Positions 6,544 to 64,000 of a stretch of 64,000 nt of DNA are shown piece by piece. This stretch comes from Vermamoeba vermiformis (lineage: Eukaryota), in assembly GCA_045837725.1 (NCBI GenBank), contig JBEWZL010000191.1, forward strand, positions 1 to 64,000, in the 5' to 3' direction. The translations under genes and the position numbers were made by a program. Every line of letters starts with the position of its first letter. Positions within the stretch are counted from its first letter, which is position 1. The notes under the pieces were generated by a model. The model was not told where the DNA came from. It searched no databases and was given only the letters and a program-made list of their open reading frames with translations.

Positions 6544-9500
6544 TTAGCAAGCAAAGACGCTCAAGGGAGCACCTTTCATTTGCACAATGTTCTTGGCCGC
6601 AGAGTCATCGCGGTTAGAAGTGTCTTCGGACTTGCCAAAAATAGCTTCTTGAGCTTGAGCTTCACGCATGAATCCGTCCAACTTCTCGCCTTGCTTGATA
6701 AAGTTGATATACGCGCGTTGTTGATCTCGACGCTTCATGCCACGTTGCAACATGCGTTGATGCGAGATCAAATTAATACGAGCGTTTTGATAGTCACCGT
6801 GTTGAGCAATTTTAGCGCTTTCTTGCACGGCTTTCAACGCGACAATTGAAGCGTTCATGCTCACTTCGGACTCCTCGCGCTTGTTCGTGACACGTTGAGT
6901 CTTGGTAATGACGCGCAAGTAACGACCGCCATCGAGACGCGAGTAGATGATCTGAGCTTGAATAGTGACGTCGTCAGTCTTAAGTGGCACTGACGGATCC
7001 AGCGTGAAACCAAACGTCAGATCAATGTCTTCAGTGACGTTACCCATCTCACGTAAGGCCTTGTTGGAGCTCGAGTCAAGGAATTTCACTATGAAAAAGA
7101 CAACGTAAGCATTTGCACACGAATAATTTTGATAAAAGATTTGACTTACCTCCGTGAGATCCACGAACATTGACGGTGACACCAGTGCCCAAAACAGGCT
7201 TGCTCATGACCTTGGCGATTTGTTTGCTCAAGTCCAAGGGATCGACGATATCAACACTGCCAGCAGTGATATCAGCAACAGCGGCCAATTGCTCCAAGGC
7301 ACAGTCATCGCCACGAATGGTCAAGACGTTGATGGTGGTGCCGTTCTCTTTGGCCATGTTGGCAATGCGCTTGTAGAGGGCAGCGACATTCTCCTTGGCA
7401 GCACCAGTTGTGCCTTCAATAGAGCCGAAACCAACATTGGCGAGACCGTCAGTGCAGATCATAATCTTCGAGCCAGGGCGCTTAGAAGCCATACCAACTG
7501 CATAGGTCAAAGCAGGACCCAATGCAGTGCTGCCTTCGGTGTCCAATGAGTCAACACGATCAATCAACTTTTGGTGGCACTCTTTAGCAGATTTCTTGGC
7601 GCCAGGGAAGGCTTGACCGCGTTGGTAGCACATGTCGAAGTTGTTCAAGGTGCTGTTGTCAGTCAGCTTGACAGGAGCGTCGTAACCATCGCCGTAGACA
7701 GTGACGGTCTCACTGAAAGTAATCAAGACGGGGTGTTGGTTAGGGAAGTCCTTGGCCATTGATTGCAAGTGCGTGTGAACGGCAGCTTGCACGCATTGCA
7801 AACGGTTGATGCGAGTACGAGAGGGCATGCGACGTTGCAAAGCCTCAGGGAAGTTGACTTCACCAGTGACAGGAGTGTTGGTGCTCATAGAACCAGAGAT
7901 ATCAACACAGAAAATGACCATTGACTCATCGTTCTTTCTGTTTTGCTCGGAGATTTCGTGAAGGAGAGCGCTGTTGTCCATTTGCACGTTGGGCTTTTCA
8001 ATAATGAACTCAGTGTTGCTCTTCTCGGGCTTCTCGAAGTCTTCGAGTTGCACGCTGTTGGCGTGATCGCAGAACTCGCAAGTCCAGGTGTTATTGATGA
8101 CAACGCTCTTCTCGTTGAAAATGGCGCGGCAGCCCTCACAGTAGACGGCTTCACCGGTCATCAACTGTTCGGTGGGTTTGGCGAGACCAGCCATAGAAAC
8201 GCAGACGACGTTGGGGGTAGGAACTTCGTGCTTGAATGAAGTAGGGGAGCTTAACTTCAGCAGGCTTGACCTCTTCAGGCTTCTTCTCTTCAACGACAGG
8301 CTTGACTTCTTCAACGGGCTCTTCTTCGCTCTCAGACTCGCTTTCAACGTCTTCAACTTGGTTGCAGTTAGCAGGAGCGGGAGGAGCAGGCGCGTAGATT
8401 GATTTTGAGGATCCAGGCACATAGCTCGAGGAAGAGGCAGAGTAACACTTGCGGTGGACAATGGCGGGGCCGACTTCATCATAGTCTTCCTTGGTAACCC
8501 ACATATTTTGGAACGTGCTCAATGAGCCGAGGATAGAACCACCGATCCATGCAGAGTACTAATTATACTGGTTTAGTAAAAGCTAATGAAAGCAAATTAA
8601 GAGTGACTTACTTTGCGCTCAGGAGGAGCAACAACACGGATTCTGCAAGTCGAAGGAGCGAGAGCGGTCAATTCTTTTTGAATTCTGTCTGCAATGCCAG
8701 GGAACATGCTAGAACCACCGGACAAGACGATGTTGTGGTACAAGTCCTTGCGAATATCAATGTCGCACTTCATGATGGCGTTGTAAGCGAGTTCGTGAAT
8801 GCCGGCTGCTTCCATGCCCAAGAAAGAGGGCTGGAAGAGCACTTCAGCGCAGCGGAAACGCTCGTTACCAATGGTGATGACTTGGCCGTCGGGCAATTCG
8901 TAGCTCTTTTCCAATCGAGAGGACGAGTAAGCAGTTTGCATTTCTTGTTCAAAGTCCAAAGCAGTGTAGCAAAGTTTTTCCTTAATGTCACGGACAATTT
9001 CACGCTCGGCAGTCGTAGTGAAAGCGTAACCACGTTCAGTCAAAACTTTCATCAAGTAGTCGGTCAAATCACGACCGGCAATGTCGAGTCTCATAGCTGC
9101 GTGGCAAACTTCTAAGCCTTCGTAGATAGGAACGGCGTGAGTGACACCATCACCAATGTCGAGGACGAGACCAGTGGTTCTGCCTGAGGCGTAGAGCGAC
9201 AACGCTGATTGTGAGGCAGTGAAGAAGGCAGGAGCGTTGAATGACTCGAAGAGAATTTGAGTCATCTTTTCGCGGTTGGCCTTAGGGTTCCAAACATTCT
9301 CGGTCATCAAGATTGGGTGTTCTTCGGGCGCGACACGAAGCTCATTGTAGAAGGTGTGATGCCACAATTTTTCCATATCATCCCAGTTAGTAACAATGCC
9401 TACAAAGTTAGAGTTAGCTATGTCAAGTCACCTACTCAAGAAGGTCTAACGTACCGTGTTCGACGGGGTACTTGAGCGTCAAGATACCACGCTTGCTTTG

Positions 9501-10277
9501 GGCTTCATCACCGACGTAGCTGTCTTTTTGACCCATGCCGACCATGACACCAGTGTGACGAGGGCGGCCAATGAGTGAGGGGAATACAGCGCGTGGGGCA
9601 TCGTCACCAGCAAAACCAGCTTTGACGAACCACGAGCCGTTGTCGACCACGAGTGTTTGAATCTCATCGGAGAGAGAGTTAGCGCCGTACATTTGCGACA
9701 ACGATTGTTCTTGTGTAGTGAATGCCTTGTTTCCGGCAATGCGATCAAACTCTTCGTTTTGTTGCTTAGTCGCGTCCATAATCTTTTGTTGTCTGGCTTT
9801 CTGTTTCTCGACCTCTTCTTTGGTTCGTTGTTTTGAGACTGCGTCGTACTTGGCAGCCTTGCCCTTTTGATATCTTGGTTGCAAGCGGCGAGACGACGAG
9901 AAGACACCGTAGTTAGTGGCTTCAGCGTCGTTGTGGTTCATATTCGCTTGATTTTGCTTGGCTTGGCTTTGTTCTTGACCCATGCGGATCAACTCGTTCA
10001 AAAACTCTTTATCGAAGCCTTCGACGTCCTTGGCGGCATCGGCCCAAATTTTAGCTTGTTGCTGAGCTCCCGAGGACAGACCATCTTCAATTTCATCTAA
10101 GGCGAGATCCGTCAGAAATCAGATTCGAAGGAATAAGAACTTGGGCGAGTCATTCAACAATTGATGCTCGTTGTAAGAATGTAAGTATTGTTCTATAGTT
10201 CAATAGTTACCTTGATAGATCTCTTCCTCTTCGGCGGGATTCAGACCAACTAAAAATGCGGTAGTACCGAATTCCAT
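6544..10277 (-). CDS. Actin fusion protein: N-terminal extension, complete actin domain, acidic/Pro linker, Sec23/24-type Zn finger and vWA domain (CPRAS1-like body)
   Basis: Spliced actin runs from [25 protein letters not shown] to [10 protein letters not shown] with no stop, then a linker, then [10 protein letters not shown]...[24 protein letters not shown] and [10 protein letters not shown]. One +1 frameshift or a short intron near 8244-8247 is needed to join the two halves. Confidence 0.8.
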
Positions 10278-15914: not shown

Positions 15915-17502
15915 TTAAAATTTTGTGTCCACGTGCGACATGAAAAAACGATGGATGCCTTTAGCTCCGATCTCATTGTAATCGTCTATAGTCATAGCCA
16001 TACTATCATGCACAAACAGCGACCCTATTATACTGCCGCCGACCCAAGCCGAAAGCTGCGGATAAAATCAGCATTACTTTACCTAATTAGGAAAACAAAG
16101 TTTGGCTTACCTGCGCCTCAGGCAGTTTGACAACTTTAACGTCTTTATAATTGGTTGAAGCCAGTAATGCTTTCAAATCTTGCCTCAATCTCTCGCCTAC
16201 GCCAGACATTTGGCCAACAGCTCCACCAATCACAATATTCCGCAACAGTTCTTGGCGTAATTCTTCGGGACATTTTTCTATGCTTTGAAACACCAGATCC
16301 GCGAGACCAGGCGAGCTTATGTTAAGCACTGAAGGATTAAACAATGCCTCGCCTACTTTGCACCTCTCGGGGCCTATCATAAAATATAGTCATTATAGAT
16401 ATCTAGTACTGTCCAACTTCAGTAAGAAGTGTCAAAGTGTCAGAATTTGACACGTGTCAAAAATCGTGAAATTTTGTTATTGCATCGGACAAAGGTTTCA
16501 ATCATAGTGTACATATTATTATACATACCATAATTAATATATTCTCCGCCCGGTAATTCCCAGCCAGACCAATACCGATCGTAATTACAGGTAATTTCTG
16601 TGTTGCAATCCAAAGTAACATAACTGTGGCGTTCAGTAATCAAACGAAGACAATGTTTTTTTGCTGGTGAATCGAAATAATATCCGCCTTCATTAAGCAA
16701 TTTTTCAAAATACGAAGTCAGTTCTTTCCCGCCAAAATCGGCTACCGTAATTCCGTGAATAATTGGCAAACCCTCGTAAATAGGCACTACTCTTATTGAT
16801 TGATAGCCTAGTGCTACTGATAAGCCAGTTAATCTACCACTGCAATATAAGGACCAAAGTGATTGAGGTTGCATGACAATCGTCTTGAAGTTGAAAGTCT
16901 CGAAACACATCTCGGTCTTTTTTTCTCGATTTGAAGCGGGAATGAGCTCATGTTCGGAGACTAATAGGCTAAGGCCAGAGGGGTCCATTTTAATGTCCTC
17001 GTATATAATCCTATTCCATATTTTTTCAACGGTAGTCACATCCGAAAAAACTCCTATAGGCATCCATAAAACCAATTAAAATCATTCAATAGTAACTATG
17101 AAATATAAATATTCATTTGAAGAATTAAAATTAAGTGTTTTTTTTGGCTGGATGTCGAAAAAAAATTAAGACTTACCTCGTACAACAGGGAAAAATAGTT
17201 GTGGATCTTCAGGGACCATATTATTAACTTTAGCATCTTCATTAGTAGACACTGCAGTTGTTGAGTCAATTACTGGGAAATCTTCGCCGGCTATTCCAGC
17301 TTTCGTTTTGAAGGATCCCATGTCAATCACCACTGTACAATTTTTAAAAATTATAAATAAGTATACGAACGATATTTTAGGTAAAATAGTGCTTAAAAAA
17401 TAATTACTACTCCATTACAAATTTTCGTAACGGATTTAGAATTTGGAATTCAATTTCGCTGCAGTTCAGTTTAAACGTACATTTTATCGAGTCTTCAGCC
17501 AT
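15915..17502 (-). CDS. Divergent actin-like / actin-related protein
   Basis: Spliced MAEDSIKLVIDMGSFKTKAG, NREKKTEMCFETF, SGRLTGL, VVPIYEG, ELPGGEYI, NIVIGG and SAWVGGSIIGSL; stop TAA at 15915-15917. Confidence 0.88.
16448..16459. repeat. Intronic palindrome TGACACGTGTCA
   Basis: Read directly; preceded by two GTGTCA half-sites; lies in an intron of the actin-like gene. Confidence 0.6.
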
Positions 17503-17708: not shown

Positions 17709-18480
17709 CTAAACGGTGCATCTAGTCCAGTGACGGCAATCACCTTCAGACCAAGTCTGCCAAGCATTGAGACCCTAATTACGATCAATTAGTTATATGG
17801 GCACAGTAGGGATATTATGGATGCCGTACTTGAGTTGAAAGGATTCTGTTAGCACATCTGGCGTTCGCATCAGAGTTGTAAAGCTCATCAACGCTCTTAG
17901 GGCAATCGGGTTCTCCTCTAATTATAGACATGTTAATAGAGTATCGTATTATGGTATCTTCGCCGCTTGGCAAAGATCACACAGCGACATTTTGATGACG
18001 AACTAATGCGGATTTGACTTACAAATGGTTGCGATTGATTTGGAAGAGTCCGTAGCAGCAAATTCCATTGTAGACATGCGGGCAATAAGACGATTCATAA
18101 AACGCAATGCAAAGCATTGCATTGTGATACCTACCAAGCGTTTCAGTTTGAGGTCTCGAGATCATCTCTTTCGAAGGGACTTACTTGGCTGGAAAATGCT
18201 TCTTAACGAGCGTTTTCATATAGTCGCACGATACTTGGCTGCAGGGTTCTCGGTTGGTGGCGTTGAATCCATCGATCTATCGAAAAAGAAATCAGCTCCA
18301 ATTAACGTTGCTTCAAACGTCCTCAAATAATGAATTTGCAATATTTATTTCCAAATATACCAAAATTATTAATAATTATTCAATTTTTCGTACCTCGGTG
18401 ATTTCTTGTTCGTTGGCACTGGCAAATCCCACAAAACAGAAGGTCAAAACGACCAACGAAAGGATAAATAAGACTTTCAT
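17709..18480 (-). CDS. Secreted lysozyme-fold muramidase (c-type lysozyme / lytic transglycosylase-like); absent from the ORF track
   Basis: Five spliced exons give signal peptide MKVFILSLVVLTFCFVGFASA, then ...AMLCIAFYESSYCPHVYNGICCYGLFQINRNH...NARCANRILSTQGLNAWQTW...CTV*. The ES, GLFQIN and NAW motifs are typical of the lysozyme-like superfamily. Confidence 0.82.
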
Positions 18481-18743
18481 CGTGTAGAACTTGTTATTTA
18501 TAGATTGGTAATTAATAAAATGGGTTCTATAAAGGTTTTGGAGTCGATAGACATGACCTAAAAAAAGTTTGACAGCTCAACTGACCAACCACAGGCAAGT
18601 ATGACCCTAAAATTCGTTCAATAATGATTGTTCTGCTTAATTTTCGCCAATTTTCCAAATTGAAAGCTACAACAGAATCATTTAATCAATTTACGTTTGA
18701 TTAGTGGTTGCACATCTAGTTTAGCTAATCGACGTATCATTAA

Positions 18744-20268
18744 ATGCAGTCAAAATTGATTCAAATAGTATGTGCTATTGCACTCGTAGCTGTTGTACTG
18801 GCTGCTGACCCTCCTAAACCCACTTGGCCGTCCGCATTCGTTACCGGAGTGGATGAGATCAGAGAGCACTCAGGCGAAGTCAGAACAGTAAGAATTAATT
18901 ATGAAATAGCTCAATTAATGCAATGATAGCTAATCAGATCATTTAGGGCTTGTGGTTCTACGATCAGACCCAAGAAGCTGAACGGTTTGATGTAGAAACC
19001 GAAAGACTTCGCGCTATTGAAATTTTTGAATATAAAGAGGTAAATTTAAATACAATAATACCGTAGTATATCAAATTTATCGATAAACCTAAAAATATTA
19101 ATTTGTGTCATGACATCCGCGTCAAAAATTTATCGACAACGGTCAAATGGATCTTAAACTATTATCAAAATGCTTAATGTCATATTATTAACTTACCTAT
19201 TTAGGGCAAAGCTTACTTGGCCGAGTACAAGCACCATGAAAAGCCAACTTGCAAAATCCACGAATTGCCTAACCACATGCCTGCTCACGACTTCAGCAAC
19301 TACCAGTTTGCCGGCAAAGAATCTATTAGAGGTACATGGAGTTAATACAAGAATATATTCAAATGCTAAGAAGCTGAAATTTCTTTAATGGATCGCGTAC
19401 TGACCGACCACTTCAGGCCACAATACTTACAAGTGGGTCAGAAATACTACTAACGCCGAGTTCGTCTATTGGGCCGACGAGATCACCGAGGACCCTATCC
19501 AATTCGCTCGCGAGATTAAAGGCGAGATCAAGGAATCCGTTCACTTCTTCGCTTTCGACCGAACTCCTCAAGATCCTTATATCTTCAACGCCACTTATGA
19601 GTTGCCCGTCTGTCATGGTCAATTCAAGCAAGGTATTCCTAAGCCTATCGGTGGTAAGTAGACCTTAAAAAATTCGGCCCAAAAAAAAACCGGCCAAAAA
19701 TTTCTTCGCAAAAAATCGCGTACTGACTCAATGCACTCCAGAATCGATGTTCTACTTGCCCTCTGATACTTGCCATAAGGCCGCTGAACATGCTAAGCAC
19801 TATGCTAGCTGCGGCTGTCCTTATGTCTGGGGTGGTACTTCTTGCGGATGTGGCGGTAGCGGAGGCATGGACTGCTCTGGCTTAGTCTACACGAGCTATA
19901 GTAAGTGGCGTAGGATCGACGTATTGTTAATTTAAACTAACCGTATTTTAATAGGACAAGCGGGCTGGAACGGTATTGCTCGTACCACATCTGGTCAAGT
20001 CAAACAAGTACCTTAGTTTAATTATTTAAGCAGTAGCATAGTATTAATTACCGTATATTAGGGCTCTAGTTGCGGTTCTTGCAGCCCTCACAACACTGCT
20101 AGCTGCCATGTTGGAGATCTGTTCTTCTACTCCTTCGGTGGTCACGACGATCACGTGCTCATGTACATTGGTGGCAATTACGTGGCTGAGTGCCCTCACA
20201 CTGGTCTCAACTGTCGTGTCATCCATCCTTATACTGAGAACTACAGCACTTGCAGACGATTCTGTTAA
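18744..20268 (+). CDS. Secreted protein with an ependymin-related (EPDR/LolA-fold)-like N-terminal domain and a C-terminal NlpC/P60 peptidoglycan endopeptidase
   Basis: Signal peptide; PPKPTWPSAF..GLWFYD..ERFD..PQDPYIF; then CPYVWGG..GMDCSGLV..ARTT..GDLFFY..DHVLMYIGGNYVAECP, giving a Cys-His-Glu triad. All junctions are GT-AG and in frame. The NlpC/P60 call is stronger than the EPDR call. Confidence 0.85.
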
Positions 20269-20374
20269 GCTTTGGCGAACTTAGCTTTGAGCTGTTTTTT
20301 TCCTTATTTAGCCATAAAGATGATTTATTTAGTCCTAATAAATGTAGTTAACATGGATTCGACTGTTACTTGGC

Positions 20375-23300
20375 TTATAATGGAATTGGAGCTCCAGGCA
20401 CTGCCTCACTTTGGAGGGTAGATCCACTTTGGTCCAACCGTTTGAGGTATCCGTCCAGATCTGGAATAAATGTTTCTGCACCGGGTAATTGCACTGTAAT
20501 TTCTTGACCGGTAATGACGTTCTTCAAGTGCACTGTAATTATACCGTTGACATCCATCTCAATTGTCAATTCTCCGATCTTGGTTCCTCTGTAAACCGAA
20601 CAATATTAATAAGACAATTCCTTATTAATTAGAATACGTACTGTTTTACACCATCCAATCCGTCCAATTTCAAGTTTTGGATCAAGAAATTTTCGGCCGT
20701 TACACTTGACTCGCCGTAATACAACTGCGATATAACAATGAATAGGGATATGTATATAATGACGTCAATATACTTACATTAACTTCAACTTGCTGCGTGT
20801 TATCATTGGCCAAAATAATCTCGCGGATCTTCTTGGTTGGCATAGCAGTGTTTCGTTCGAGTATTCTAACGAACTCTCCGTTGTGATTGGTCATTAGAAC
20901 GCTGGTAGCTACCACATCGAGTAAGAGAATGCTATCGCTTTCATCGAGGGCTGCAGTTGGAGCCGGTCGCATCACTATAAAACAAACAATTATATTAAAA
21001 CCTTTTCTTAATACTAGATAATAGTGCCTGGCTGCCGGTCGCATCGAAAATATAACTATTTATTACAAGAAAGGATCGTTTAAACCATTACGTCAAAAAA
21101 AAATAGTGCATATTTTTTTCAGGAATAAAAGATGATAGTAATAATTAATATGAACAACGCAGTAATGTACGAGTGACGTTCACTAAATAATCCCGTAGCG
21201 GAACTTCGTTTGCGACCGGCAGAAGCATCGTAATAAGGATCGACTGAGGCAGTTTTGACCGCCAATATTGTGTTGGACAGACTTACTCTTGGCACTCGCG
21301 AACCCTCCTGCGCCAAAAGCTCTATGATGGTGCATTGCTTCTTCGCGCACAGTCTGAATAGGCACGATGACCTGTTGTGTCTTGCTCGGATCATTTTCTT
21401 GCGACTTGTCTACGGCAATGAACGAGGTCTCACGCGACATTAAGTTGTACCGTTGAGCCAAATCAATAATTAAGTTCTTCACTTTCGAGGCACTCTCTTC
21501 GTCCAGCTCGGGTCGGTGGTATCGGAGATTTCCGGAACGGTCTTCTTGGACCTTAGCTTCGTGTGCGAGGTGGATCTCGCTGCGAGATTCTTCTAAGTCG
21601 CGAATTCTTGAACGAGCTGCAAGTTTGTGAATGGTGTCGCCGTTGACGTGACGCACGGCTGTTTTTTCAAGGATGATGTCACCTTTGGCAGTTTTGACGA
21701 TGAATTTGTCGGGGACTGGGCCAGTCACCATGGCATAAGCCAATAGACGAGATCCTTCATAGAGGGTGGGCAGAGTGTAAGGCGTTTGGAACTGAACTTT
21801 GGCTTCATCGGAGTTAGTCCAGCTGACACTCTTGACCTCTTGCGAGTTACTGCCCAATGCTCGTTGCATTTGACGGTTAATCTAAGATGCAAAATAGAAT
21901 AAGATCGAGTCCTAGTGTGCATTAAACTTGACGTACCTTTTCAATGACTTCTTCGCCAGGAATTACAAACTCGGCAATACCATCACCCGCACGAGCCAAT
22001 CCGTTGACCAACTGACATTGCAAAGGTTAGAACGAAGTAGATAGACTATAAAACCTAGTCATACCAAGTGACTGACGCCGTAGCCAATGCCGACAGCGAA
22101 CACGCGATTGAATTTCTTATGCTTTTCTTCGCCAACCATGGCAATAGTGCGGTCTAGTAAGAGGTTAGGAAGGAGTTACAGGAATATAGATCAACGTACC
22201 TGTGTCGGAGATCTCGCCGTCAGTGATGACAATGACATTTTGCTTCGTTTTGTCGTTGACACTTCGTTCCAAGACGTACTTGAGAGGCTCGTACAATTCA
22301 GTGCCGCCGTTAGCCTGCAATGTTTCAACGAACTTCATGGCCGTATCGTAGTTTGCTGCATCGGCTAAGACAGGTGCGTCGAAGAGTTTGTTGTAGCCCG
22401 AAGAGAAGGCAATAATATTGAAGTAAAAATTACTTCGTTCAAACTTCTTCATGGCGTTGTCCGAGCGGCGCTTAATGTCGTTAAGACTAACGCGCAAAGC
22501 TTCTTTAACATTTTGCATCTTTTCGCCGAACATGCTGCCCGAGACATCGACGATAAAAACGACCACTTTGTCGTCGCCAATGGTCTCTTCTTTGACTTCC
22601 AAATCGGGATAAAGAGCAACGAGCACAGCCTTGTCCGGTAATCCAGCTTCATGAACGCGTTAGATAAGGTATACCAAGCTAAGAGTGGCATGGACTTACG
22701 TGTAGTTTCAATCCAAGCACGTGGCTCGTGAGGGGCTTGCAAGTTGACAGTCATCACAAAATCACTGTCCATTGGCTTAGCGCCACTAAGCTTAACGGTG
22801 CCTTTAAGTCCATTAAGTTCAACTGACACGGGGTGCGAGGGCGACGAGACTTTAACGATACGAGAAGGCATTTGCAAGTCAATGTTGAGACCGAACTTAT
22901 ATGGCACGACGTCTTGGCTTGGCGGATTCAATACCGAGTCTGTGCTGCGATGGTCCCTAAAAACGTCCCATATTAATACGCAATACGAAGCGAAGTTAAA
23001 TACCAAATGTTTTCTTGAAAAGTTTGAGATCGGATCTGTTCATGAAACAAAAGCTTACTTTGTAGTGGCGTCAATGGCTGGGACGTATCTTGGCGCGATA
23101 GTAGTCGGCAAGATGAATCTTAAATCATCACCTTCGAGCGTGAGTTCGGTCAAATAAGTCACTGTAATCTTCGCTTCTTTACGAGCGGGAAGGTTTCCGA
23201 CATTAACTGTAAATATGTCTGCTCGCTCTTCTTCCATCAAATATGCAGTGTGGCCTTGTTCGAGTGCCTCGTTGTATTCTTTGAGTGCTTGTTGTCTGCG

Positions 23301-23736
23301 CAGAAAGTTAGTTTTGGTTGATCGGATCACGAGGTAGAACTTACTTTGGCTTTGAAAGCGCGACGACAACATTGCCTTCTATTTCAGCCTTGAATTCGGT
23401 GATGGCTGATTTTTCATCGAGAGGGAATTTGTAAATACATTCAAGCGGGTGCTCTTCTTCATTTTTGTAGACTTGAGTAATTTGTACTTTCGCTAGAAAA
23501 TCAATAACATCGACTTGGACCTATAATATGAATTTTTAATAAGATCAAAATAATTCAAGAATATTTGTAGAACAACTTACGTCAAAAGTTTGAAGAGGGA
23601 TCTTGGATGCTGCGAACTTCGGGTCTCGTACATATAAAGAGGCTCTAAAGCCATCTTTAGTATCTGATGTCGAGAATTTAGGCAAAATTATTGCGACAAG
23701 CACAATAATAAACAAGGATGTGGCAAGTCTCTGCAT
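20375..23736 (-). CDS. Secreted VIT + vWA protein (vWA5A/ITIH-like), probably fused to a C-terminal Hsp70 substrate-binding-domain-like module
   Basis: Signal peptide; VIT (YKNEEEHPLECIYKFPLDEKSAITEF, DIFTVNVGNLP); MIDAS residues DVSGSM, ANGGT and ITDG; downstream exons read LLLDVVATS..ILERNTAMPTKK..MDVNGII. The link between 21183 and 20976 is inferred. Confidence 0.78.
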
Positions 23737-58506: not shown

Positions 58507-60954
58507 TTACAGGTGGTTATCTTCCTTCCACAACAAAATAGCCTCTTTCAAGCCATAGGAAAGTTCGTCTAACGAATCATTTTGATACAATTTGATCTCT
58601 TCTGAGATATCCGTTGCCAAATTGTTCCTCAAAGTCGCAGCTTCTCCGTCATCCCGACTAACAACACCAGTCAAGTTGTAAGTCTGCAACAACTCCATCA
58701 TCTTCGCGTATATTTGACCTTCTTTAGTGGCACTCATATCAACGCCAGCTAATTTAATCGCTCTCTTCAACATGTGACGAGCAGGATCTGACGATGATTC
58801 TTGTTCAGACATGTACTTTGAAGGGTTCTGGTACACGTCCAGTGGCGAAGGAGACGAGAATGCACCGCCATCCTTTGGTGGGGGCGGCGCGTCTGTAGCA
58901 TTGCCATAGTACATAGGCTGTGGGTCAATTACGTGGGACTGTGGCTGGGGTTGAATCACGTGCTCTTCAGGTGGTACGATCACGTGACTTGGCTGCACGA
59001 CGTGTTGAGGCTGAGGGTTGATATCGATCACGTGATTGTTGTAGATATTGGGCTGAGCAGGGGGTGGAATCACGTGAACAGGATCGACCACCACGTGGCT
59101 TGGCTGCGGATCCACATTGATCACATGAGGCATCTCGGTCTTAGTCTCCGCAGGCTTCTTAGTTGACGACGATGATGAGCTGCCCGATGATGACGTACTC
59201 GATGCTCGTTCGCGATTTCGCATTTCTTGGACCTCGAGGGGGACTTCTGGTTGAAGTCCAATCTCAGCACGTGCTCCAAAGTCTTCTCGTGGTTTTCTCT
59301 CTTTGACAGGCCTCTCAGGCACCTTCCATAACAAGGCTACTAAAGTGATCATGAAGAACAATCCCGCGAGCAACATGAAAACAAACGAGGCAATGCCCCA
59401 CCAAAACTGCACTTCCCACAAGTACCATTCATTGGCAGCTGCACCAATCACTCCAATGCAAAATTGTTGCGGCAAGCAAATGATAGTGAAGGCTTTGTAC
59501 GAGCGCTGAAAATGTCCATAACTTGTGCTAAGCAAGTCATCGGCCAGGAACCACGTCACAGCGAGAATAGCGATGTTAAACGCCACGGAGATGAACATGA
59601 GGCCAGTGAATGGATAGACGAAGCCGAGAATATGGGTGTTGAGCACAAAGAGGATCCAACCAAGGAACAAAAGAATGTAGGCTCGCACATCCAATCGTCT
59701 TGATTCCTTTCGGCATTGGACGAGCAACGCAAGGCAAAATACGAAGAGCATCAAGCCAGTGCTTACAACAGTCAACACTACTGGCATGGCAACTTCACGA
59801 GCTAGATCCGCCAGTTGATTAGTAAGTTTTATCGATCGGAAGTCCTTATAAGACGCACCTTCGATTGTTCCAAAGTTGTCAGAATCAGACAGTGCATTGA
59901 CTCTAGCAAATGATATTGATGCGTCGAGCGCTGCAAGGCCCAAATTGGCCGTGTTATTAGAGTTATCGAGATCGTACTGACAACCTAAAAAAAAATTAAT
60001 TAATTATAATTATTAAGCAATAGGTATTATACGTCTAATTATTATCAGTGCTTTGGTACACAATAATAGAATTCTAATTTCAATTTTCCGATTTTTAGTT
60101 CTAATTTAACCTACCCAACTGGAATTCTTCGGGTAATTTGCTGCAAGCTGAATAAGAAACGATCGATGGATAGCCAGGTACTGATACTTCAGCGGTGCAA
60201 GTGTTATTCTGGGTGCAAATTCCTTGGCTGACATCCGCCAATCCGGTTCGAATTGAAACCGACATGTATCTTCCGGATTTTCTTATAATTAAGTCCGTAT
60301 TGACTGCCAATAAGTTGATTGCTGCTTCCGTCGTATTTTGAGTAATAGTAATCAAATGGGGGAACCATCCTTGGGCCGGGATTCGTCGCGCATCCCAGTC
60401 ATCCTTTGAATACCAGGTTCTGGAATAAACAGCGCATCCATGATAATCAAATCTAATACCAGTAATTCCAGGATATAATATGCCGGCAGTAACGCGGTCG
60501 TCGACGGTGGTGTTGGTGAGCGCCGTAATGGTAAAGTATTCGTTGGTTAATAATATCGTTGAATTTTGTTGAGGGCAAAGCAGCACAGTACTATTAAAAT
60601 CAATAGTATGATAAATGCCCCATACTGAGCATGTTTGTCTTGCTTCTGCTACTTGCGTGGGAACCGTTGAGCAAATCGGGCACGATCCTGGTCGAAATAG
60701 CTTCGGAACGAAAGTATGAATAGCATCCCTGTATTTCGTATCCAAGACATGAGGCATCTAAGCATTGAGATAAGCCATAAGCGTTGGAACAAAAATCGGA
60801 ATTCGAAGGATCCACATTAAACTCGGCAAGGCAATCACTATTTACGGTGTTAACTGCCTCGGAGCAGCCTGTATGTGCCTGTGTCTACCGCGTCTTGCTG
60901 GTACGAAAGGCCAAATAAAATAAATATGAAAAAGACTGCTGTTGTTGTGCCCAT
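58507..60954 (-). CDS. RGM/vWD-like ectodomain multipass membrane protein, paralog A (two apparent frameshifts in exon 1)
   Basis: Signal peptide MGTTTAVFF..QQDA, CSVWGIYH and FQLGCQYDL, about 5-6 TM segments, HVI-repeat Pro/Gln region, C-terminal LSYGLKEAILLWK. Collinear with paralog B. Confidence 0.75.
58925..59125 (-). repeat. Coding tandem repeats (H-V-I/V-x-P-Q-P)
   Basis: Repeated CACGTG codon pairs encoding HVINVDPQPS, HVVVDP, HVIPP, HVIDINPQPQ and HVIQPQPQS. Confidence 0.7.
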
Positions 60955-61287: not shown

Positions 61288-63796
61288 TTACAATTGATGT
61301 TCATCTTTCCACAACAATACAGCTTCTTTCAATCCATAAGCCAGATCTTCAGCCGAGTCGTTTCTGTACATTTTCAATTCCTCCGCTAAATGCTTCGCGA
61401 GATCATTCCTTAATGAAGCTGCCTTAGTATCTTCACCATATAATGCTCCGACTAAGTTTTGAGCTTGCAAGAGCTCTTGAACCTTGGCACAGATCAGACC
61501 TTCGCGTACTGGATCAACTTCGATGCCGGCGATCTTAATAGCTCGCTTAGCCACTTGTCGTGACGTATCTAAACTGTTATTTGGCATTGGATTTGACATC
61601 ATAAATTGAGTTGGATCCGGTGCTGCCATGTACTTTGCGGGGTTTTGGTACACGTCCATAGGCGAAGGAGCGTTGAAAGCTCCAGCACCATTAGGAGGTG
61701 GCGGGGCCTCTAATGGATTGCCATAATAGATTGGCTGAGCTTCGATCACGTGACTTTGTGGTCGAGGTTGAATCACGTGGTCTTGCGGTGGTGGTACTAC
61801 AGGGCCTTGTTGCGGTTGAATCACGTGACTCTGTGGCTGCGGCACAACAGGGCCTTGTTGTGGCTGCATCATAATTGGTTGTGCTTGTGGCATAGGTTCG
61901 ACTGCTACTACACGCATTGGTGGTGGCAAGATACCCTGTTGCACTTGGATCACGTGCTGTTGTTGGACTTGCACGGGTTGAGGCTGTTGCTGTTGTTCAG
62001 CACGAGCGACTTCCATAGCGACCATGAGGTCATTGAGCACTTGCATAGGCTCTTGATGTACAGGCGCAGGGCCGTTGAGAATCTTCGCAGCCCAGCTCAT
62101 GTCCAAGCACAAGAAGCACATGAAGATGCCTCCCGCGAGCAACAAGCCGAGGACGCCAATGCCCCACCAGAACTGCACCTCGATGAGATAATACTCGCCA
62201 GCAGCGGCGCCGATAATTCCTATAGCTGCTTGCTGCGGTAGAGCAAAGCCTAAGAGGGCTTTAGTGATGTGAATTGACTGTTGCGTGAATTTGCTCGATC
62301 CAAAGGTGATACATTTGTGATTGGTTCCAACCCAAGCAAGGATCCATATGCCACAGAAAGCTGATAGTATTGTCATGCCCGTGAATGGGAATAATAAGCC
62401 AATCGCATGAGGGTTCAAGCAAAAGATGATCCAGCACCAGATCGCTCTGATCGGAGCAGATTCGAGATTTCTGTGACGAGCCGCAGGTGTGTATGCGTTT
62501 GCAGAAAAACAACAACAGCAACCCGTATTAGCGTTACAACATCCTTCATAGGCCGAAAACTCCATTGTTTCAGCTGCGCGCTTCATTGCTTTTCGGCGCC
62601 AAAAATAGGCTCCAATATAAACTCCAACCATGACTGCCGTCGGTCCTAATGTCAAGACAATAGGCAAACCAGTCTTCTGAACTGTAAGTAAATTAAACAC
62701 GATTAGATCCGCAACGAAAATGAAAAGACAGTCTGAAAACTCGAAAATTGAATCAAACTTGATATTTACTGAATGGTACTTACATTCTACTTCGCCAAGG
62801 CTCGATGAATTGGATAGACTCTTTAAATAGGTATCAATTGTGACGGCATCCGAGATCAAAGCAGTGGGTTGATCTGTGAGTGAGTCGTACGAGCACGCTG
62901 AGAACCAAATTAATTAGCTTACTATTAAATAATATATCTCCTAATTAGAGTATCAATTTACCTCTCTGGAATTCGGTTGGGTAAGATGCACAAGACGGGA
63001 TCGAAGCGAATACAGAGCTATCTAACGTGCAATAATTGCTCATGCAAACCCCACCAAGTGAGATGGTATTAGTACTATATCGAACACCAGTAGTAATGCT
63101 AACTGCCAATAAATTTGAACCAGATGGCGCTGATATAATAATCTCCGTATTTAACGCTGGCAATTCTATTAATACTTGTGTAGTATTTTGAGTAATATGA
63201 ATGGTATGTGGGAACCATCCTTGCGTTGCAACTCTTTCTGCTCTCCATCCATCTGCTCTTCGCCACGTTCTTGAAAATATTGCGCAATAATGATATTCAA
63301 ATTTAATTCCAGTAATTCCAGGAGTAGCTGCATATATTGTGGAATTGGATTCGGCCGTAAGCGTGAAGTGAAGGTTGGAAAAAATAACAAATGAGGAGTT
63401 TGTTGCAATGCCACAGGTCTCTGGTTGTCTAGTAAATGGTACTACGTGGCCTGTTCCCCATACGGTGCATGTTTGTTTCAAATCTGTCACGACTTTGGGC
63501 TCATCGTAACAATCTGGACAGATGTTCGGTCTATTCAATGCAGGAACGACTAACTGAGCCGCTGATACTACTGTCTGCGACATACATGATGCGTCTATAC
63601 ATTGCGTGAACGCTAAACCATAGGCGCAAAAGCCAAAGTTGGTAATATCATCCGGCGACGCGTAACTAAATCCAGTAGCGCTCAAACAATAGTCGTTAAT
63701 GCTTTGCACGAGTGGATCGCATTGACCAGTTATAGCATCTTGCTGAAGTGAATAGCCGACTAAAATAAATAAAAGTACGGCTGTCGTTGTGCTCAT
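61288..63796 (-). CDS. RGM/vWD-like ectodomain multipass membrane protein, paralog B (intact)
   Basis: Signal peptide MSTTTAVLLF..QQDA, Cys-rich helical part, CTVWGTGHVVPF and EFQRACSYDSLT, TM block with LPQQ..GIIGAAA..EVQFWWG, Q/P repeats, C-terminal LAYGLKEAVLLWK. Confidence 0.8.
61745..61960 (-). repeat. Coding tandem repeats (QPQQGPVVP / SHVIQP)
   Basis: Near-duplicated units QPQQGPVVPQPQSHVI and QPQQGPVVPPPQDHVI. Confidence 0.7.
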
Positions 63797-64000
63797 CTTG
63801 AAAAACAAGACAAAAAAATGAAGGAAAATCTCTAACCGAAAGCTGTCAAATTCGTAAGCGCTGACAAAACCCCCAACATTCCGTAGCTGGTACAACTAGT
63901 ACTAACCTAACTCAGAATGGTCTGCTTCTTCAGATTCAGCTAGATCTGACACAACAAATAATTCAATTGAGATAGTGGCCTATCTTTGCATTTCTATGAG

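Follow-up and report, generated by a model that had tools for sequence, protein, structure and literature searches.

Within the first 64,000 nucleotides of contig JBEWZL010000191.1 of the bacterivorous amoeba Vermamoeba vermiformis (assembly GCA_045837725.1, forward strand; this whole stretch is termed the window), two genes stand head to head: one encodes a lysozyme-fold protein (17709..18480, minus strand) and the other an NlpC/P60 peptidase preceded by an ependymin/LolA-type leader (18744..20268, plus strand). We consider it probable that these are two expressed, single-copy amoeba genes of a leader-sharing protist family, and that their products are secretory-pathway, most likely food-vacuole, enzymes acting on prey peptidoglycan. 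The original prediction described the pair as a co-regulated two-enzyme module for lysing bacterial walls. This description found partial support—in the signal peptides, the NlpC triad, the catalytic Glu of the lysozyme, the splicing, the purifying selection and the linkage—but it overlooked the leader, from which more can be learned than from any other part. The architecture in which this leader is joined to a wall-attacking "warhead", together with its tie to the neighboring gene, appears undescribed, the enzymes themselves being of known kinds; no report of ependymin-NlpC fusions, of the other leader fusions or of this pair was found in the literature searched, outside of which lay most subscription papers and supplements, including those of PMC6363788 and PMC6280359.

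The whole window is eukaryotic and intron-rich, and both genes are spliced. The lysozyme-fold gene begins with an ATG at 18480 and its stop codon ends at 17709; five exons (18480-18394, 18276-18185, 18130-18023, 17917-17830 and 17774-17709, minus strand) encode 146 amino acids, comprising a signal peptide, a short linker and a Cys-rich SLT/c-type-like domain, with exon 3 (18023..18130, minus strand) holding both the catalytic Glu (in FYESS) and the NGICCYGLFQIN motif. The gene is missing from the open-reading-frame track, as the original prediction had pointed out; its largest exon has only 36 codons, which accounts for this absence. The gene on the plus strand runs from an ATG at 18744 to a stop ending at 20268, and its seven exons (18744-18887, 18947-19039, 19205-19331, 19417-19653, 19742-19900, 19955-20007 and 20062-20268) encode 339 amino acids. 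These form a signal peptide of about 21 residues, predicted from hydropathy (18744..18806), an ependymin-related (EPDR)/LolA-fold leader delimited on the model of the 91%-identical database protein P0001 (residues about 22-190, exons 1-4, 18807..19620), and a Cys-rich NlpC/P60 (C40) peptidase domain (exons 5-7, 19742..20268) with the triad Cys245-His302-Glu314. Between the two ATGs lies a divergent spacer of 263 bp (18481..18743), a candidate bidirectional promoter. Gene models and spliced joints agree with the start positions and head-to-head layout originally given, and a recount returned the same ATG-to-ATG distance.

Neither gene model contains an internal stop, and all ten introns begin with GT and end with AG. 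Spliced contigs cover all ten intron joints in run X1 and nine of the ten in run X5, the two runs coming from different studies; that X1 and X5 represent RNA is a guess, although their contigs are free of the introns. In the raw RNA runs X11 and X13, which stem from a relative with 90-95% identity and from which just 15 and 30 reads, respectively, were obtained, a few reads fell at three joints. Database proteins align to the gene models over their full length at 89-93% identity (P0161, annotated as Vermamoeba vermiformis, 92%; P0001, 91%; P0004, 89%), and each gene occupies a single locus in the 43-Mb genome, according to searches insensitive to split genes. Both products start with a hydrophobic, signal-like N-terminus followed by no later membrane segment, and both carry paired-looking cysteines and N-glycosylation sequons. 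Based on these features, both proteins are predicted to enter the endoplasmic reticulum (ER) and the secretory pathway; the earlier label of secreted proteins holds for the signal peptides, with the evidence extending as far as entry into that pathway. Downstream, a spliced vWA-domain gene (window 20340-23500, minus strand) is convergent with the NlpC gene, and its transcript contig ends at 20340, i.e., 72 bp past the NlpC stop.

On both sequence and modeled structure, the plus gene belongs to the NlpC/P60 family (peptidase C40), as originally assigned. Pfam PF00877 (cut-off 23) scored 43.6 bits on the genomic locus and 54.1 bits on P0001, the best PDB sequence matches were RipA and other peptidoglycan endopeptidases (about 1e-7), and alignment to RipA placed the catalytic residues Cys245 (in DCSG), His302 and Glu314 in register. 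The model of P0001 also reproduces the NlpC/P60 fold, with a Z score of 17.7 and an rmsd of 2.2 over 118 residues aligned to 8er5. In a phylogenetic tree, 23 Cys-rich NlpC domains—Dictyostelium proteins among them—separated from the 40 best Cys-poor domains at a support of 99; this tree, arbitrarily rooted and with most rows lacking taxonomy, left out 59 more Cys-poor rows, near-duplicates and three fragments, and contained no Trichomonas sequence. A Tieghemostelium protein matches the Cys-rich NlpC domain as well. The comparison with Trichomonas drawn in the original prediction proved loose, since phmmer matched the T. vaginalis enzyme 8ev4 at E=0.063 versus 1e-7 for mycobacterial RipA; moreover, a Pfam scan of P0001 found no SH3b accessory domain of the Trichomonas A1/A2 type, the N-terminal domain being LolA-fold instead. 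A recent or Trichomonas-like transfer was rejected as the main story on account of the ten introns across both genes and the 99-supported split of the Cys-rich type. Because the 8ev4 match is weak and the Cys-rich NlpC type is common to dictyostelids, this type appears, from sequence comparison, to have been acquired separately and long ago.

The leader preceding this domain is, according to its model, an EPDR-fold subfamily that falls outside the Pfam model. The P0001 model (pLDDT 76.6) matched mouse, human and frog EPDR1 over the leader at Foldseek E values of 2e-8 to 7e-8, and its closest structural neighbors were VioE (Z 17.7), sponge EPD-BCP1 (8i34, 17.5), mouse EPDR (6jla, 16.4) and LolA (about 13), while its language-model neighbors were DUF8395/ependymin clusters at 0.91-0.95. 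Pfam Ependymin (PF00811) gave no match for P0001, the residues 22-190 of which had no Pfam match of any kind, and relatives of the leader reached PF00811 at E values of 1e-4 to 4e-3, under the cut-off. The leader holds two cysteines, 95 and 187, which are candidates for the counterpart of the conserved EPDR1 disulfide (C113/C210). Other, more distant EPDR-like genes were also observed in the same genome (L014 1426-3168, on G000 C123, and L013 975-1725, on G000 C166), with two of them apparently in tandem on C123.

Beyond the NlpC/P60 gene, the same leader type recurs in front of other domains. Among the best 150 of 4149 matches of P0001, 28 matched the leader only: 19 of these stand alone, four are joined to the lysozyme family, two to DPBB_1 and three to a Cys-rich tail, with lysozyme fusions accounting for four of the seven top leader-only matches. 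The DPBB_1 domains score above the cut-off, and the Cys-rich tails are saposin-like by eye and have no Pfam match. A search with the lysozyme added two further leader-lysozyme fusions, and 11 non-redundant leader-NlpC fusions, retrieved partly via the NlpC domain, passed the leader profile. Where a source is named, DPBB fusions come from Gefionella and Physarum, a Cys-rich one from Anaeramoeba, and both a stand-alone leader and stand-alone lysozymes from Soliformovum; most other members are environmental proteins. When the lysozyme fusion P0006 was compared with the Vermamoeba genome, all five matches fell on this locus—the lysozyme half on the minus gene and the leader half on the plus gene. 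In BLAST comparisons, the best non-orthologous matches of the leader were lysozyme fusions, with 122 bits for the P0006 cluster and 120 for P0014/P0184, whereas other NlpC fusions scored lower (105, 92 and 92). Furthermore, a tree of 43 leader domains, built by a quick method after dropping 15 near-duplicates, placed the plus-gene leader in a 99-supported group mixing NlpC and lysozyme leaders; five NlpC proteins with a leader recognizable by eye lay under the profile threshold. The best reading of these sequence relationships is that the minus-gene lysozyme is a leaderless member of a protist family that joins one leader type to varied wall-attacking domains. Among the leader-NlpC fusions, P0018, P0033 and P0048 have apparently lost the catalytic Cys motif, and P0033 carries two leaders; in P0021, a WSC domain is joined to the same Cys-rich NlpC domain.

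The lysozyme-fold protein departs from the textbook enzyme in its active site. Its database relative P0004 narrowly passes Pfam Lys (PF00062, 29.2 versus 27) and also passes SLT (PF01464, 27.2 versus 21.3), remaining under the cut-off of SLT_3 (PF18896, 19.9 versus 27); P0006 is below the PF00062 cut-off. The best PDB sequence matches of P0004 were insect digestive lysozymes (E 7.5e-5). Aligned to four PDB lysozymes, Glu72 corresponds to Glu35, and Cys85 takes the place of the Asp of DYGIFQIN (Asp52), so that the lysozyme-fold gene of the original prediction keeps its catalytic Glu but has lost the second catalytic acid. The Glu is invariant in all 20 tabulated relatives, as are ES and GL[FW]Q, and a CC pair marks the Asp52 site in 15 of 15 eukaryote-type rows, two phage-like contigs and one Ilumatobacteraceae protein, with Asp found in three other prokaryote-type rows. 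A single catalytic Glu plus GxxQ is what we take to be the defining motif of the SLT family; the nearest language-model atlas clusters were SLT_3/SLT, and phage proteins matched at E 2e-3. Judged by its sequence, which lacks Asp52, the minus-gene product falls outside the classical c-type lysozymes/muramidases (GH22), and a one-Glu mechanism, either transglycosylase-like or inverting, is predicted for its product. Activity is well established for one-Glu enzymes of the lysozyme fold, namely the lytic transglycosylases. With a pI of 5.9, the protein is acidic, unlike membrane-active lysozymes, which are typically cationic.

Regarding possible donors, a GTDB scan confirmed eight of 25 candidates, all of them distant and none a clear donor, and among viral contigs none of the 32 and 106 pattern matches for the two families was confirmed. 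Searches of the amoeba's own genome for the GH25, Lys and Amidase_2 families came back blank but are uninformative, as PF00062 missed the window's own lysozyme gene. Three related cases were also observed. In two phage-like contigs (L011 674-2216 and L012 5932-7513), an SLT_3 protein (VYNGICCYGL) adjoins an M23 peptidase, a prokaryotic pairing of glycan and peptide cutter. In L009 (1-1095), the same lysozyme domain follows a part that resembles a papain-type protease by eye and precedes a long Ser/Gly/Thr tail. Finally, P0183—lipoprotein-like, bacterial by appearance and 37% identical to P0004—keeps Asp at the Asp52 site.

Linkage of the two genes was assessed in a metagenome scan that yielded five loci out of 163 candidates. 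One of them, the genomic contig L010, is 71% identical in DNA over the pair and displays the same head-to-head layout with a 251-bp spacer; it shares all eight introns within the covered part, which ends before the NlpC domain. The other four, two intronless eukaryote-type loci and two phage-like contigs, are uninformative on linkage. The synteny in relatives suggested as a check in the original prediction is therefore present in a single close relative, in which the GH15 neighbor is syntenic as well. Codon differences relative to L010 (39 synonymous and 10 replacement changes in the mature lysozyme; 44 and 17, respectively, in leader exons 2-4) show both genes to be under purifying selection. 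Spliced contigs extend to 18498 and 18667, leaving an uncovered spacer of at most 168 bp, and the spacer shares identity runs of 12, 11 and 10 bp with L010. Both genes are present in X1 and X5, although expression cannot be read from the depth of the contigs in these runs. The pair may be linked in a second case as well, as hinted by P0004 and P0157, for both of which the longest contig measures 2464 bases.

Several observations weigh against a co-regulated unit of two active wall cutters tied by one leader. The spacer core is 58% identical to its L010 counterpart versus 46-71% for the introns, and the introns hold identity runs of 10-16 bp too. The GH15 gene is also syntenic in L010, so the synteny may represent plain genus-level colinearity. 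Elsewhere in the window, unrelated genes also stand in divergent pairs, their candidate starts, chosen by eye, lying 143 and 435 bp apart, and depth in X1 and X5 cannot separate co-regulation from co-presence, the downstream vWA gene being found in the same runs. The leader tree does not settle a sister relationship between the leaders of NlpC and those of lysozyme proteins, and the leader itself is dispensable, since 19 of the 28 leader-only relatives stand alone and both the dictyostelid NlpC proteins and the Soliformovum lysozymes lack it. As for the lysozyme, the loss of Asp52 could mean little or no hydrolase activity, and its model is poor (pLDDT 55.6), with no Foldseek match at E<=0.001 and top rows of c-type at E 0.4-1.7 (hen lysozyme, 0.4).

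Some of these points could be accommodated if both enzymes were real wall cutters whose adjacency in a gene-dense genome is incidental and whose regulation is independent—an explanation that we regard as unlikely. The short spacers between other unrelated divergent genes, the inclusion of GH15 in the L010 microsynteny and the modest conservation of the spacer are all compatible with it, as is the count of the spacer motif GGCGAAAATT, which is not enriched in the window (seven matches versus 7.9 expected by chance). However, each gene has a single locus, and chance neighbors are improbable: taking a gene total of roughly 17-19 thousand, extrapolated from an eye count of about 25-28 in the window, we infer a chance adjacency of about 1e-4 for this pair and about 0.05 pairs among an assumed set of about 30 bacteriolytic genes. 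In addition, the shared leader ties the two gene families to one another.

It is distinctly unlikely that the layout is an evolutionary relic, in which a gene with the leader gave rise to an inverted duplicate or exchanged its catalytic domain, the leader later being lost from the lysozyme copy, such that linkage reflects origin instead of regulation; this history would be compatible with the explanation that we favor. The lysozyme fusions heading the leader's non-orthologous matches fit such a history, and so do P0184, the best non-orthologous match of the window lysozyme (68%), and a lysozyme tree, itself lacking resolution, in which the rows nearest to the window lysozyme are leader fusions. 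Yet the score differences are small, the trees do not resolve the order of events, and leaderless lysozymes occur in Soliformovum too. A single inversion swapping leaders via introns was considered and found unsupported, as the intron phases ahead of the catalytic domains differ (1 versus 0) and the pair is spanned by no long inverted repeat (longest, 31 nt at 71%). Very improbable, finally, is a non-hydrolytic lysozyme-fold protein that binds peptidoglycan or chitin-like glycans, permeabilizes membranes or serves encystment and leaves all cutting to NlpC/P60: the Cys at the Asp52 site would suit this role, and the amoebal lysozyme AlyL can, according to PMC13399256, kill without catalysis, but the Glu is invariant, the CC motif recurs both in an actinobacterial protein and in phage-like SLT_3 proteins that neighbor an M23 peptidase, and the protein is acidic.

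If the two genes indeed encode prey-wall enzymes of a leader-sharing family, both proteins would enter the ER and probably reach the phagolysosome. There, the NlpC/P60 domain, of the cysteine D,L-endopeptidase type, would cleave the stem peptides. The glycan strand would be cut or opened by the lysozyme-fold enzyme via one Glu, not by the two-acid route of c-type enzymes. Each cut would loosen the wall mesh for the other enzyme—a mutual effect of peptide and glycan cutters that is established for these families. By analogy with EPDR1, the leader would attach to lipids or membranes under acidic conditions, thereby concentrating the peptidase on anionic surfaces, engaging lipoprotein anchors or routing the enzyme. 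Since a short divergent promoter region is common to both genes, their joint expression appears likely.

A broader proposal, which we put forward as a tentative possibility, is that protists digesting prey generally use the EPDR/LolA subfamily as a module for engaging the bacterial envelope and that the locus is a co-regulated unit, with one leader serving both enzymes. Under such a scheme, the leader would work in the acid food vacuole, binding or extracting lipids or lipoprotein anchors of the bacteria and thereby bringing interchangeable warheads to the wall; these would be the NlpC/P60 peptidase, the one-Glu lysozyme, an RlpA-like DPBB domain and saposin-like helices. If true, this arrangement would imply an ancestral antibacterial role for the EPDR fold. 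The ways in which free-living amoebae gain access to peptidoglycan and dismantle it are understood only in part, and the molecular function of EPDR proteins is not settled; the repeated joining of an EPDR leader to a wall cutter bears on both questions. The locus further offers a short spacer that may serve as a bidirectional promoter, and a lysozyme in which Cys replaces Asp52. Should the leader be inert and expression independent, the pair would merely add two more members to known amoebal lytic families.

Further features were observed elsewhere in the window. A divergent actin-like gene (16087-17400, minus strand) lies between GH15 and the lysozyme gene, but the corresponding position in L010 lacks it; it has almost no coverage over 16600-17400 in four runs and is possibly a lineage-specific insertion. 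At 6544-10277 (minus strand), an actin domain is followed by zf-Sec23, vWA, Sec23 trunk and beta-sandwich domains, apparently in one gene, which would be an unusual fusion if the splicing holds. Two similar tandem genes (58507-60757 and 61288-63895, minus strand) encode hydrophobic proteins that probably reside in membranes and have tails rich in Pro and Gln, and gave no Pfam match in the three frames scanned.

Comparison with known systems places the locus among several partial precedents, described here from the accessible portions of each source. The Trichomonas toolkit comprises signal-peptide NlpC/P60 enzymes of types A and B, GH19/GH25 lysozymes and AMP, and its NlpC/P60 alone fails to lyse E. 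coli, partners being thought necessary (10.1101/320382, PMC12612818). Both protists combine signal-peptide NlpC/P60 endopeptidases with glycan cutters directed against bacterial walls, a role that in Vermamoeba is predicted. The Trichomonas accessory domain, however, is a bacterial SH3b, in contrast to the eukaryotic ependymin/LolA leader found here; its glycan cutter belongs to another family, sequence similarity is weak (8ev4), and no gene linkage is described in those portions. Other eukaryotic NlpC/P60 wall hydrolases are known from mites (PMC4600878) and from Aspergillus fumigatus, the secreted CwhA of which lyses Gram-positive bacteria and was inactive on the Gram-negatives tested (PMC12332128). 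CwhA resembles the Vermamoeba enzyme in family but is fungal and carries an SH3b accessory domain, and SH3b is likewise the accessory domain described on eukaryotic NlpC/P60 hydrolases in the portions consulted.

The leader finds its closest parallels among EPDR proteins. Human EPDR1 resides in lysosomes, where it modulates other hydrolases, and attaches to anionic liposomes at acid pH (PMC6363788); proteins combining EPDR with a cathepsin include the 26/29-kDa peptidase and Dictyostelium CfaD (PMC6363788, PMC10380794). These proteins share with the plus-gene product the order of signal peptide, EPDR/LolA leader and papain-fold cysteine peptidase; unlike in them, the leader is followed here by a peptidoglycan peptidase of family C40, and its relatives carry a lysozyme, a DPBB or a Cys-rich domain in that place. 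In the accessible parts of those sources (PMC6363788, PMC10380794), EPDR is described as fused only to cathepsin and the cathepsin propeptide domain, and the main text of the EPDR survey PMC6280359 contains neither "peptidase" nor "lyso". With respect to the lysozyme, phage and actinobacterial SLT_3/SLT proteins (L011, L012 and L027; compare the Lactococcus phage "transglycosylase") display the same ES...NG.CCYGL[FW]Q pattern, but differ from the window lysozyme in having no introns, fewer cysteines and long branches.

The nearest biological counterpart is the arsenal of Dictyostelium, a phagocytic amoeba with many wall enzymes, including at least 22 lysozymes, among them C-type enzymes and the two-module AlyL (PMC13399256). 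AlyL provides a precedent for a catalytic domain combined with a separate envelope-acting module, although its module consists of amphipathic helices on an Aly fold. The searched literature held no functional study of the stand-alone dictyostelid NLP/P60 proteins (XP_629164.1 and relatives). These proteins are of the same Cys-rich type as the Vermamoeba peptidase, with about 62% domain identity and a position on the same side of the 99-supported split, and differ from it in lacking the leader.

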